This document shows, one piece after another, positions 4,567-9,581 of a stretch of DNA of 40,151 bases. Origin of the DNA: Perkinsus olseni (Eukaryota); NCBI GenBank assembly GCA_013115125.1, contig JABANN010000314.1:1-40151 (forward strand), read 5' to 3'. How positions within the stretch are numbered: the stretch's first letter is position 1; each line of letters starts with the position of its first letter. The notes below the pieces were generated by a model, which saw only the letters and a program-made list of their open reading frames with translations, was not told where the DNA came from and did not search any database. The translations under genes were made by a program, and so were the position numbers.

Positions 4567-7164
4567 TTATTCCGTGTTGCCCATCAAAATGGCTAAGTTA
4601 GCCGCCGCTTTCGCCAAGAACTACAAAGAAGCGGTGACAAGGGGAAAAACCGCAGTATGACAATTACCTCCAAGGATGGGTTGGCTGAAACAACGCAGTC
4701 CAGGATTCGGCAGCCAGTCTCAAAGCTGCCGCCCCAAATGGCTGCTATTACGGCACATCTGCAGAGGACAATTATACAGCGGAGTGTCCAGTGGACGCAG
4801 AGAGAGACCAGTAGCTATGCGTGAGGGGCGGTCTTGAGCCGAAGATTCGTCCGAAGACACTTCACAGGAGCGATAACCTTTGACCGACCCGAGAGCCACC
4901 CTACCTTATGACGCAGTCTACCACTTCGTAACTTTGCCTTAGTTGTTCGCCTGGAAGAGCACTATGAAGCATAACCGTGTGAGCGTAGATCCTGATGAGA
5001 TGAAATCGACATCAACAGTCGGCGGGAAGGGACTCCCACCTAAAGGCCGCATCAAACCTGCCGGCAGACTCATAAGCTTCTGCAAGAATTATCATTTCGG
5101 ACTCGGAGTGAGCAGCTGAACATAAACATGTCGAGACTGGGAATCGAACCCGCGACCTCCTCACGAGAAAGCTCCTCAAGCATTCTGTTAGCAACTATCA
5201 TCTTCTGGGTGAACCGCAGCGCCCATTCATTGCCGCCTTGGAACTGAAGGCAGTGGTGCGCGACAGTTTTCGAGATGAAAAGCGACTAGCCGAGGGATCG
5301 AACCCGCGACCTTCTCCATAACAACGCCAACTCTTACCGATTTCGCTGGAGAAGTGCTGCTAACGTCAGCGCTCAGGCGTCGTGGCACGCCTTGGAGCCG
5401 CTCCATCACCTCCCCTGTTCGAACAATTCCCTTCTCCCCAACGGGAGTCGTAGCCGTCCTGGATGGTGTCTCTCCCTTCACGGATGTCGCGAAACGAAGG
5501 TCCATCTCATGCTGAGAAAAATAAAAAAATCCGACGATCCGCGAAGCGTTGCAAGCTCACCTCGGCCGAAAGAACAATCTCAGGTTCCCAGCCCAGGGGT
5601 ACCGTGTAGATGACCAAAGAGGGATCAAAAGGCGAGGTTATACTGAAGAACGCCAATTCCCAGACGAGGACTAGCCGCCATTCATCTCACCAGCGCTCTG
5701 AATTAGCAGCCAAGTGCGTAGCGATGATGTCCTCGTCGGGAGGAGGCAGCATGGAGGCCCCCTTTTCCGCCCAAGCCACGACGATATTGCATAGCACCTA
5801 CCGCAGTTACAGTGATAAAAATACTTAACTTCACAACTACTTTCTCAGTGATGATCGCCTTCCGCGCCGAGCTTTGGCTCTCGAACTGCACGTAGGCCAC
5901 CTGACTGCCGGTGTCGGGGTCAGCTTCGCAAAGTGCCTGACGCACGGGAAGAATGACCGGGCCGGAGGGTCCGGTGGTCTTACCAAAAATTCAATTTTCT
6001 CCGGATTGGGAAACAACCGGTCCAGTAGCTTTACATTCAGCGGCCTAAACAGAGGACGATTGGTCGCGGGTTCGAATCCCGGCAAGGACATTTCTACCCT
6101 TCTTCCAATCTTCCCACAGAGGCTATCGTAGTAGCCGAATGCCACTGAGGGGGTTCGCCAAGCTCCATCCCTCCGTCTACCATTCCACTGGAGGGCACCA
6201 GAGTGACCTTCAGCATACGCGGCGCCACTTGAGCCGGCCGATTAAGATCGTACTCCACCCTCTCATACAACCTGAACGTCATCTTCCGCTACTACCACAA
6301 CTTTCCCGAATCACCTCCGGAAGCCTTGATAGCGGTCCTTCGGGACCAAATGCTTGTACTGGGCCATGAAGCTCAAAGCCTCCTCCTTCTTACTAAACTT
6401 GTTAAAAAGGCCAGCGACATCCATGATCGCACTGACCGCCTGAGCGACCGGCCCGTGAAACGAATTCCTAGGAGTACGAGCCCTACCCTAATGCCACGCT
6501 GAATACATTGCGTGTGCCAGTACAGGGCCCTTCTGTAGTCACGGGCATTCTCCGCTCGCTTCGCCATCGTATACGGTGACGAATCCTGAGTCCAACCATG
6601 GCTAACCTCGGATGCTACTATCACCGCCATGATTCTTACCCGCGGTAAAGTAATGAAGTTACTCTTGCGATAGAGCAATACGTCCGACTCCTCATCAGAA
6701 CTCTCTCGCCCAGGGCCCGAGCCTCCAGGGTCACCCAGCGGCCGGAGCAACGCAGCCGAAGCAGCACCAGCCAGGCCGCTTCCTCCGGCTGCAATACCCG
6801 ACGAGGAGTAGTGCTCGGAATGGTTCAAAATACTCAAGGGAACACCATGGCCAGCAAAGGGCGTGGTGGCAGTGTCCTCTCCGTAGCTCTGCGCAGTCGG
6901 GAGCGCACGGGAGGGACGAAGTAATGAGTCCGGTTCGTTACCGAACATACCGCAAGGCGGACAGCAAGAAAGACAACAAATCTTAAGACTGCGGGACAAC
7001 CAGTGCCATTCCCAATACCCAAACGCAGCACGAGCAGCGACTTTGAAATATCCCTTCACGCGCTGCCCAATAGTTTCGACGATCCACACGCCGTCCACGC
7101 CCCGGTCATTATTACGCGGACCCGAGTATCGCAGCAGCGACGTTGTGCGGGTCCTGGGCGCCAT
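4567..7164 (-). CDS. Multi-exon hypothetical protein with TPR-like helices and an RRM-like segment
   Basis: The first exon is ORF 6373..7164. Later exons give AKRAENARDYRRALYWHTQCIQRG (TPR-like), VAYVQFESQSSARKAI (RNP1-like), SEMIILAEAYESAGRFDAAFR (TPR-like) and a last exon FLAKAAANLAILMGNTE* (stop 4567-4569). In-phase GT-AG introns verified at 5116-5164, 5244-5337 and 6045-6097. Confidence 0.6.
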
Positions 7165-7490
7165 TGGAGTCCGAACCGTAGGCAGCGTCCATCATACCGT
7201 TGTGAGAGGCGCTGTCAGCATCGGTCGGCACGCCTGAGAACCAGGACAATGTATGACCGTTAAATATCCCTCCACTGACTATTATTGTAATAGCATCTTC
7301 ACGAGTTGTGCATTCAGGCGACCATTCATCAGCATCAAAACCCGGGAAGACTCAAGTGGCGTCAACGACGGCGGAGCTTCACACTCAAAGCCAGCGAGCG
7401 AGAATTGTTACGGCGTTTACCGACTGCAGGACGTTCACTTAGAAAGGGCACACATGCCATAATTCTCGGTTGCGACCGTGTTGCGGCTAG

Positions 7491-9581
7491 CTACTGCTGC
7501 TTACCTTGCTCATCGACGGCATTAAGATGCACAAACTGACCATCAACGTTCTCCTTGATAAGCTCCACTGTGTTATCAGCCAGCGCAACAGCAAGTACCT
7601 GCACCAGGACAGTAAGAGCAGTATTAAGTTCGGCGCTCGGCTGCATCCCCGGGCGTGAAGTCATCGAAATTTCTTCTATTAATGATGTTATTATAATTTC
7701 AATATCCACGTATATTTCCATCACAATCTATGTACTTCTCAGTGGATCACAAACATAGTCTGCTTAAATATATTGTGGCTGTGTCAGCAGCACTGCGCTT
7801 GAGGTTTGCGCCGCAGTCCACGGCCCGAGAAGTAGCACGGCCTCCCACCCAAGGCAACCGCGACTAGTGATACTACAGTGCCGGTGATGCTCCAACTGAG
7901 TCTGTAGGCAGCCGCCTTCATGTGGAACTCCTGTGCGACCTTCCAAGCTTGCCCTTCCATATCACACTGCCAGATCTGGCAGGAGAAAGACGCCACGTCA
8001 CGCGCCACGAAATTGCCCGAGCGAGGTCGGCCTACCAAAACGCTGCCGTCTTCCGAGCAGGACGCAATATGCTGAGTGGGAATGCCAGCGTTGGGCCTCC
8101 ATGCGACATCACGAACCTGAGATGCCACTAAATTTTATGCTACAATCACGACCACAACCTACAACATCAGTATGCTTTCCCGAGGGCAGCTCCGTCTCCA
8201 TGCTCCACTCCCCAGTCGATTCATCCATACGCCAGATTCGCACCTGAGACCCATCGGGTTTGAACACAAGCTCGTAATACACGAAAAAGGAATACCACTC
8301 CAATCCCAACTCATGTACCTGATAGTCGTTCCCTCCAGACACAATCCGCCTAGGTCCCACTTGCTCGTCGCTCGATGGCTGCTGCTGCACCTGACCAGCA
8401 AAATCCTCATCACATCAGCGGCCCAAATACGCCATTCCTCGGCCGTCCAGGCCCGACCCTTATCCGACAGCATTCACAGCGGACCGAAGATGCCCTCATG
8501 AGCGCCAATGGAAGCACGTTTTCCCCATGCGATGATAGCAAACCTACCGCAGGCCCCGAGGCCAGGGTGGAAGGAGTAGTGGCTGGACTCCACGACACGG
8601 CAAGGACGCCACCGAGATGGGCTTGCGGGATGACCCTGACAGCAACAGGCAATCCAAAGGTCGCAGGTTCCAACCCAGGACATGAATTTCTACTTGCGAC
8701 TCCATGTGGAGACCTGTTCATGAGTGAGCACTGAGATGCTGCCATCGCTGGAGCCAGCAGCCAGCACCAATCCGTACTCCCAAGGGGCGAAGGCACAGCT
8801 GTTGACTGATGCGGTATGGGACTTATCACAGTACCTGCAGGGAGACAACTTGCACAGCGGGAACGCCTGAGCACGATTCTGCCAACAGCATGGATCGACC
8901 TAAGATTCCTCTCATCAAAGTCGGAGCGTCTCTACCCCAAATGGTAGAGTCCGCGGCGTCCAAGGCAAACCCTCATTACAGTTGCTCCCACACAGCGCTC
9001 TGCTGATGCTGATGATACCCTCCTGTGATCTTCTCCCTCCAGATGATAATCTGACCATAGTCACTGAGGGAGCCCGAAGGGGGCCGAGGCTTACCTGTCT
9101 GTCGTAACCTACGCTGGCCAGGATGCTGCCGTACTTGGGGTGGGCCCAGGACACTTGCCACACTGGAGAGCCGTGGCCACGGAGCTCGCCAAGCAGAGCC
9201 TGCTGCTCGGTGCCTACAATGGGAAGGCGGTGACAGTACGGAAAATACAGGCTGACGGACTTGACCCACCAACCTCGAGAAATTACGCTTGGGACTGAGC
9301 GCCCAACCACTATGCCACTCTTCCCCCCACTACTTACTGACGTCCCAAACTCGAATAGTAGAGTCTTCTGAAGCCGTGGCCAGACGCTTCCCATAGTAGT
9401 CCAACTGAGCATCGTGAATAGGACCAGTGTGCCCCGTGTCAAAGGAGCATGACACAGGCCCGGTCGCCTGCTGCTGTTGCGGCGTCATCGGGACTTGTTG
9501 TTGCTGCTGTTGCTGAGCCATCCCAAAAGTATTTATGGGAGCAGCGGCAGGCCTTTGCTGCGGCAAAGTCTGAGGCATCAT
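7491..9581 (-). CDS. SEC13: Protein transport protein SEC13 (WD40; COPII / nucleoporin), multi-exon; final exon uncertain
   Basis: Motifs [89 protein letters not shown]...[19 protein letters not shown]-rich N-terminal extension. Confidence 0.93.

Follow-up and report, generated by a model that had tools for sequence, protein, structure and literature searches.

Genes and Introns at the Locus

The DNA analyzed here, referred to as the window, is a 40,151-nucleotide (nt) stretch from Perkinsus olseni (GenBank assembly GCA_013115125.1, contig JABANN010000314.1, positions 1 to 40,151 of the forward strand). Between 4.5 and 9.6 kilobases (kb), it carries two minus-strand genes rich in very short introns, one of which encodes SEC13, while the other, here called gene 1, is unnamed. 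Four introns of these genes, designated A to D, contain copies of a short module that resembles the end of a transfer RNA (tRNA) gene, and two of them, C in gene 1 and D in SEC13, share the donor octamer GTAGAAAT in addition to the module.

The exon structure of both genes is supported by several types of evidence. For gene 1, GT..AG joints were found for 12 introns in contigs of four public runs, of which one is recorded as RNA, two are presumed to be, and the type of the fourth is unknown, 15 of the 46 joints from these contigs being listed; the thirteenth intron was deduced from pieces of one contig. In the SEC13 model, the reading frame is restored across nine GT..AG introns, and the exon preceding intron D matches residues 101-140 of human SEC13 (E=8e-11). 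The same exon also matches proteins that bear the name Perkinsus olseni at NCBI, and one of these, P0271, contains all 22 junction peptides of the two models. The introns of the set examined range from 43 to 278 nt in length.

The NCBI model P0271 (953 amino acids; window 4570-9521) joins SEC13 to the downstream gene and is an exact match to SEC13 and gene 1, the end of SEC13 excepted, where SEC13 has its own stop after ...DEQGKQQ and the present model and P0271 diverge after 344/347 residues. Another NCBI model, P0274, begins at the gene 1 start of the present model, and a gene 1 contig terminates near 6990. Despite the fused P0271, the RNA evidence suggests that SEC13 and gene 1 are expressed as two separate messenger RNAs. 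Additionally, RNA contigs of run X13 carry loose letters at their ends at 9610-9612 and 11678-11679, at the 5' ends of two minus-strand genes, and these letters together with the genomic AAG/AG give CTTGGCTCAAG, which is how the Perkinsus spliced leader PmaSL1 reads in its final 11 bases (PMC3101222). By this sequence match, the two positions are spliced-leader acceptor sites, the first belonging to SEC13 and the second to the gene that ends near 11679. Table 1 lists the features on which the following sections are based.

Table 1. Introns, modules, and possible further copies in the window.
Feature	Positions	Strand	Description
Gene 1	about 4570-6948 (coding sequence)	minus	unnamed; without Pfam family
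Intron A	5116-5164	minus	gene 1; 49 nt; phase 1; donor GTGAGG; module at 5121-5158, sense
Intron B	5244-5337	minus	gene 1; 94 nt; phase 0; donor GTAAGA; module at 5276-5312, sense
Intron C	6045-6097	minus	gene 1; 53 nt; phase 2; donor GTAGAAAT; module antisense to gene
Module C	6061-6097	plus (tRNA sense)	TGGTC; T arm CGGG-TTCGAAT-CCCG; CAAGGAC; A; trailer TTTCTAC
Intron D	8636-8693	minus	SEC13; 58 nt; phase 2; donor GTAGAAAT; module antisense to gene
Module D	8658-8693	plus (tRNA sense)	most diverged copy; AGGTCGCAGGTTCCAACCC, then AGGACATGA, then ATTTCTAC
Possible copy E	9242-9317	minus	longer tRNA-like stretch, sense, in SEC13 intron 1 (9214-9337, 124 nt)
Possible copy F	26168-26200	minus	CCAAG-TTCGATC-CCTGG, CAAAGGC, G, TTTT
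Control intron	15756-15798	plus	43 nt; donor GTAGAAAT; without module

The Antisense Modules of Introns C and D

Introns C and D were the subject of the original prediction, which described their ends, their common octamer, and an antisense tRNA-like segment in each, and this description proves correct. On the minus strand, intron C runs from GTAGAAATGTCC to TTTAG and intron D from GTAGAAATTCATG to GTCAG; both start with GTAGAAAT, and about 20 nt past the donor both contain the reverse complement of GGTCGC(G/A)GGTTC. The removal of intron C is seen in one contig of each of the four runs, as a 53-nt gap whose CT..AC ends correspond to GT..AG in the minus-strand reading, and its junction peptide is present in P0271. 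Intron D is defined by the restoration of the SEC13 frame on its removal and by its junction peptide in P0271, its joint not being among the 15 of 46 joints listed.

The alignment of C with D spans 36 columns, with a score that was reached by none of 5000 shuffles and, after omission of the octamer, by 1 of 3000. By this comparison the likeness exceeds chance, and the two introns are homologous over about 36 nt. A four-copy nhmmer profile matches modules C and D at E=4.5e-11 and E=1.7e-09, respectively, each copy itself being a member of the profile.

Further Copies of the Module

Four exact copies of the 12-mer GAACCYGCGACC are present in the window, in every case within an intron between 5146 and 8670, and introns A and B of gene 1 complete the set. 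Joints of both were found in all four runs, and the junctions of all four module introns are present in P0271. The modules of A and B are sense to gene 1, opposite to that of C in the same gene, and module B occupies a mid-intron position, where it is followed by CTTTTCA.

In 462 comparisons of 22 introns in both orientations, the six pairs formed by A, B, C, and D took the six top scores, and blastn-short connects A, B, and C at E values of 3e-4 to 1e-2. The most alike are A and B (pair score 36; 91% identity over 23 nt). All four firm copies are intronic in a region, positions 4570-9521, of which introns make up 35%, an outcome with a chance probability of 0.016.

Two weaker candidates have been noted. 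Copy E combines an A-box-like TGGCATAGTGGT, a B-box-like GGGTCAAGTCC, and TTTT at the spacing of a tRNA end, but is weak as a candidate. Copy F is matched by the four-copy profile at 26167-26192 (nhmmer E=0.011), its T stem is unlike those of the other copies on both strands, and the open reading frames (ORFs) overlapping it have neither a Pfam match nor a codon signal in codon-usage maps. Both are counted only as possible, since Rfam does not recognize them. Introns C and D very probably belong to a small family of modules derived from tRNA genes, which comprises four or more copies over a distance of 3.6 kb and perhaps six in the whole window.

The distribution of the firm copies also invites an explanation by local copying, in which one module would have been copied into nearby introns of the same gene and of the next one by ectopic conversion, by local hopping of a small DNA element, or by reverse splicing of an intron after its excision. 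All four firm copies are confined to 3.6 kb out of the 40 kb of the window, three of them in one gene, and the closest relatives, A and B, share their orientation and lie 154 nt apart. Nevertheless, both orientations are present, which reverse splicing cannot yield, the sequences flanking the core show no likeness that would mark a long conversion tract, and a possible copy lies 17 kb away, making local copying an improbable account.

Resemblance of the Module to the End of a tRNA Gene

The module is about 37-40 nt long and reads like the end of a tRNA gene, with, in order, the likeness of a variable loop, a T arm, the 3' strand of an acceptor stem, a discriminator base, and a T-rich trailer. 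When the copies are aligned in tRNA sense, their common core, AGGTCGCGGGTTCGAWYCC, corresponds to the variable loop, the 5' strand of the T stem, and the T loop, and the B box is perfect in A, B, and C. The core is followed by about 12 unalike bases and then by a T-rich run. Around the core matches of the window, TTT starts 10-12 nt past the core in 5 of 6 cases and at 13 nt in the sixth, against a background of 3.3%; the core pattern for this test was picked after the copies had been seen, and the T run lies outside the pattern. In a tRNA gene, this spacing separates the T loop from the gene end, the place of polymerase III terminators, and the arrangement expected of such a gene, a B box followed after 13 nt by the gene end and a T run, is found at the core matches in the window.

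Rfam searches place the likeness in one part of the tRNA. In intron C, Rfam reports a T-arm match to the clan of transfer-messenger RNA and tRNA at 6048-6083 (E=0.019, in a 4.5-kb search) and at 6067-6081 (E=0.024, in an 81-base search), and in module A a T-arm match at 5139-5151 (E=0.44), its recognition being confined to the T arm of A and C. The segment had originally been taken for an antisense tRNA 3' half; a tRNA-like module in antisense orientation is indeed present, but the likeness is narrower than that, with Rfam seeing the T-arm hairpin only.

The modules contain no CCA, and no TGG, its complement, adjoins the antisense copies, which indicates that the source would have been a tRNA gene or a copy of its primary transcript rather than a mature tRNA. 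Taken together, it is very probable that A to D are homologous and derived from tRNA genes.

Several other identities were considered and rejected. ARAGORN found no tRNA genes in the window, and the matches that appeared at lowered thresholds (6 at -ps85 and 27 at -ps80) were judged to be noise; with no ARAGORN gene and an Rfam likeness restricted to the T arm, a tRNA gene or pseudogene with a full cloverleaf was ruled out. A primer-binding site of a long terminal repeat retroelement was likewise dismissed, the antisense copies reading GAAAT, not TGG, before the acceptor complement. Unusual RNA folding of the module introns is excluded by the z-scores given below.

Another possibility is that the conserved part is a working B box selected at the DNA level, either as a binding site of the "extra TFIIIC" type or as the remnant of a polymerase III unit. 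Matches to the B-box pattern exceed expectation in the window (15 against 8.46, with none of 100 shuffles reaching 15), A, B, and C follow its consensus perfectly next to a T-stem 3' strand that is degraded in all copies, and selection on it would explain both the independence of orientation and the sharp edge of conservation. The conserved stretch, however, reaches 8 nt upstream of the B box (AGGTCGCG), where TFIIIC binding does not need sequence, and the T run at the spacing of a tRNA end points to descent from a gene, which leaves this alternative quite improbable.

Donor Octamer, Trailer, and Splice Sites

In three of the four introns, A, C, and D, the T-rich end of the module adjoins a splice site. 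The trailer of C and D (A/TTTCTAC) stops exactly at the exon, and its reverse complement is the donor GTAGAAAT; this coincidence holds for both antisense copies and for neither of the two sense copies. In intron A, the trailer TGTTTATG lies 5 nt upstream of the acceptor. The original prediction went further and proposed that the element itself had supplied the donor through a fixed end. The exact correspondence in C and D agrees with the first part for these two introns, but A and B have the same core with unrelated donors, and thus the module does not always bring a donor. The trailers of the other copies are alike only in TTT(T)C and differ beyond it, so that a fixed end is common to C and D only.

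The linkage between octamer and module is similarly incomplete. The octamer occurs three times in the window against 0.76 expected, each time as a donor, and 6 of 100 shuffles give three or more occurrences. Two of these three introns carry the module, but the third, the control intron, does not, and the refuting condition named in the original prediction, a common donor unlinked to the motif, therefore applies in part. The control intron's junction MKLLK/TSLREW is present in P0280, and 939 and 1644 shuffles, out of 3000 each, scored as high against the module as this intron did; it was therefore ruled out as a degenerate family member, with no likeness beyond the octamer. As a separate observation, the donor of this intron pairs with a nearby ATTTCTG within 15756-15780 (plus strand) to form a 7-base-pair hairpin (GUAGAAAU...AUUUCUG), which is not significant (z=-0.98). 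The donor of the Perkinsus spliced-leader RNA is G/GUAG (PMC3101222), and with GTAG donors also common among the introns examined here, selection for a working donor could explain the shared CTAC.

These observations form the basis of another alternative, according to which the octamer is just a good donor and the T-arm-like palindrome a chance hairpin. That the octamer also starts a module-free intron, that GTAG donors are common, and that shuffled sequences occasionally contain as many octamers all agree with it. Set against this are the shuffle tests of the C-D alignment, with and without the octamer, the four exact 12-mers in 3.6 kb, and the T run at a fixed distance in five of six cases, in view of which chance or convergence is scarcely credible.

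A further splice signal may be contained in the antisense module. Its GCGAC lies 21-27 nt upstream of the acceptor, like the xRAC motifs of other introns in this region, and from this position it can be regarded as a candidate branch site.

Proposed Origin of the Introns

In the scheme considered here, the module would be a copy of a tRNA gene end or of a primary transcript that was carried into genes in either orientation. Introns A, C, and D would have come into being when the module was inserted into coding sequence, or would have been rebuilt around the module, in the manner of introners, and in the 94-nt intron B the module would have been inserted into an older intron. In antisense orientation (C and D), the reverse-complemented trailer would act as the donor GTAGAAAT, with GCGAC as the candidate branch site, whereas in sense orientation (A) the trailer would serve the acceptor as its pyrimidine tract. 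Most of the length of introns A, C, and D (49, 53, and 58 nt) is module, and the shortest introns measure 43 nt, on account of which such an origin, by insertion or rebuilding, is considered the most likely for these three, although the confidence placed in it falls somewhat below an even chance. The sequences themselves show that the four copies are homologous, that they lie in introns in the stated orientations, that they are built like a tRNA gene end, and that donor and trailer coincide, while the tRNA-gene source, the insertion, the gain of introns, and the role of the branch site are inferred from them.

The main alternative assumes that old introns caught fragments of tRNA genes and then shrank to a preferred length of about 45-55 nt, their splice sites being original or remade by point mutation. 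Intron B is readily understood in this way, being equivalent to a typical intron plus the module, with splice sites unrelated to it, and copy E, if real, sits within a 124-nt intron. Selection alone would account for copies being seen only in introns, the sole tolerant space in a compact gene; tRNA gene copies are very numerous in Perkinsus (PMC3706591), and no target duplications are seen. Introns A, C, and D, however, have only about 12-23 nt that do not belong to the module, so the capture of fragments would require the loss of roughly 30 nt or more per intron, with the module kept, three times over. Neither the abutment of the T-rich end on a splice site in all three nor the identity of the donor octamers of C and D is expected from it, and capture by old introns is considered rather unlikely.

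The age of intron D was approached through its orthologs. SEC13 loci in metagenome contigs, limited to the best 80 of 412 relatives, have one uninterrupted match across the intron D position in all 80 cases; they are transcripts or intron-less genes, lacking any SEC13 intron, and are consequently silent on the age of intron D. The ORF that reads through intron D, compared with a view to genomic ORFs of other Perkinsus species, gave no hit among 322 candidates.

A considerable number of observations weigh against the derivation of the module from tRNA genes and against intron gain by its insertion. With regard to the module, the well-conserved core measures only roughly 19 nt, with likeness falling sharply outside it; the acceptor-like strands of A, B, and C cannot be aligned with one another; and none of the four copies has a perfect T stem, the outer pair being G-G. 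Copies A to D lack an A box and a 5' half, and A-box matches in the window number 3 against 4.16 expected, the sole exact one lying in E. Copy E has neither an Rfam match to the tRNA clan nor an ARAGORN call, and copy F likewise has no Rfam match to that clan. The pairwise local scores of A to D range from 23 to 36, and the best unrelated pair also reaches 23. With regard to insertion, no terminal inverted repeats were found in the flanks of A to D and no consistent target duplications around them, AGG/AG/G at C being the sole candidate, and folding is ordinary (z=0.38, 1.42, 0.67, and -0.36 for A to D; -0.98 to +1.42 over six introns). The control intron has the same donor without the module, GTAG is the commonest donor type in any case (12 of 25 introns), and the argument for intron gain is drawn from intron size and from nothing else. 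Finally, the clustering of A to D within 3.6 kb is no less compatible with a local process than with a dispersed family, and the copy count covers one 40-kb window.

Comparison with Known Intron-Generating Elements

Introners have been described in dinoflagellates (Symbiodiniaceae and Polarella) and Amoebophrya, as well as in Micromonas pusilla and Aureococcus (PMC7789003, PMC11282704), and are described as mostly DNA transposons (PMC11282704). The modules of P. olseni share with introners that a short repeated element fills nearly all of a short intron (three of four firm copies in 40 kb fill most of theirs) and that the element itself may carry one splice site, and, as in the dinoflagellate cases, the host is an alveolate. 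They differ in being near-identical only in a core of about 19 nt, in lacking terminal inverted repeats and consistent target duplications, and in their resemblance to a tRNA gene end, an origin for which no mention is made in the accessible parts of PMC11282704 and PMC7789003. The hallmarks of introners of the DNA-transposon type, namely terminal inverted repeats and target-site duplications, are thus not seen at the four introns, the possible AGG/AG/G at C excepted. No literature was found on introners in Perkinsus or on tRNA-like elements in Perkinsus introns, within a search that covered papers in part and did not extend to supplementary genome lists.

Short interspersed nuclear elements (SINEs) in antisense orientation can donate splice sites, as illustrated by Alu exonization and by a SINE-like intron in the rice catalase gene CatA. 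Like tRNA-derived SINEs, the modules would be polymerase III-derived sequences within genes whose T/A-rich end may serve as a splice signal when antisense. Unlike them, they have no A box, 5' tRNA half, tRNA-unrelated body, or tail, and their terminator-like T run directly follows the acceptor strand, as in a gene; in these respects, A to D do not fit a tRNA-derived SINE. Multi-copy short introns are also known from fungi as introner-like elements, which are said to go back to work by van der Burgt and colleagues in 2012 and reportedly fold unusually stably. The introns examined here resemble them in being multi-copy short introns of similar length in ordinary genes, but the folds of the module introns are ordinary, within the range of z-scores given above.

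A possible source of the fragments is suggested by a related species. In Perkinsus marinus, a few tRNA genes exist in hundreds of copies, and transposons that cut tRNA genes are present (PMC3706591), which makes a source of tRNA-gene fragments plausible in the genus. The copies counted there comprise 9 and 46 of tRNA-Ile, 116 of tRNA-Gly, 23 of tRNA-Tyr, and 349 of tRNA-Leu (Kojima and Jurka 2013, PMC3706591), and the same paper describes five P. marinus Dada families of 4.7-11 kb, which insert at TAGCTC in the A box of tRNA genes with duplications of 6-7 base pairs. P. olseni belongs to the same genus, and amplified tRNA genes together with tRNA-breaking elements are a likely origin of such fragments. 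Dada insertions are placed at the A box, however, whereas the modules begin near tRNA position 44. Between 4.5 and 9.6 kb there is a single TAGCTC, at 6884, which is exonic, and with none beside any module, a Dada footprint was ruled out.

Other Features of the Window

Several features outside the two genes deserve mention. A ribosomal protein eL24 gene is located at 2431-3048 on the plus strand (Pfam Ribosomal_L24e, E=3e-10 and 4e-9); it has two GTAG-type introns, 2512-2597 and 2715-2793, and is very highly covered, with a summed contig depth of up to about 92,000 in run X7. The region 3100-4300 contains a cluster resembling C/D-box small nucleolar RNAs, with duplicated blocks at 3571-3608/3780-3817 and 3632-3666/3838-3872, and a weak Rfam match to SNORD53/92 at 3686-3760 (E=0.14) falls under the gathering score.

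Tandem intron-less paralogues of acyl-CoA dehydrogenase occupy 12030-13436 and about 13620-15017 (plus strand) in an otherwise intron-dense region. They share a 300-nt block that is 84% identical and show 60-72% identity to proteins of many protists and chytrids, an ambiguous signal as to taxonomy; database gene calls of 731-811 amino acids seem to merge such pairs. The plus-strand stretch 15800-18418 encodes a long lineage-specific protein with only 89-91% identity to three other P. olseni database proteins and 45% to one of P. chesapeaki, and this divergence, compared with the exact match of P0271, suggests either a fast-evolving gene or divergent haplotypes.

Two repeats complete the inventory. 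At 35522-35753, a 37-nt inverted repeat, whose arms are separated by 158 nt and show 97% complementarity, may represent a small hairpin element. At 38763-39133, an 18-nt tandem repeat of at least 14 units encodes on the minus strand a threonine-rich TTTKAPTTTKGP repeat of mucin-like appearance.

Significance

The origin of new spliceosomal introns is an old open question, for which the documented large-scale route is the insertion of introners. The modules described here may represent a new variant of introner-like intron origin. A broader version, in which P. olseni would possess a genome-wide introner family formed from the 3' ends of amplified tRNA genes, creating introns in either orientation and with the terminator T run as splice signal, is unlikely on present estimates; were it to hold, introners would have gained a source distinct from both DNA transposons and SINEs, in a lineage from which none have been described. 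Should the copies prove to be debris scattered throughout the genome, they would represent an ordinary by-product of tRNA-gene amplification. If the proposed origin is true, raw material other than DNA transposons, namely fragments of polymerase III genes, would be available for intron formation, and the use of the T-rich terminator end as a splice signal in both orientations would offer a simple reason why such fragments are spliced out. Perkinsus is well suited to the study of this question: a few of its tRNA genes are present in hundreds of copies, several of its species and isolates have been sequenced, and its introns are very short.

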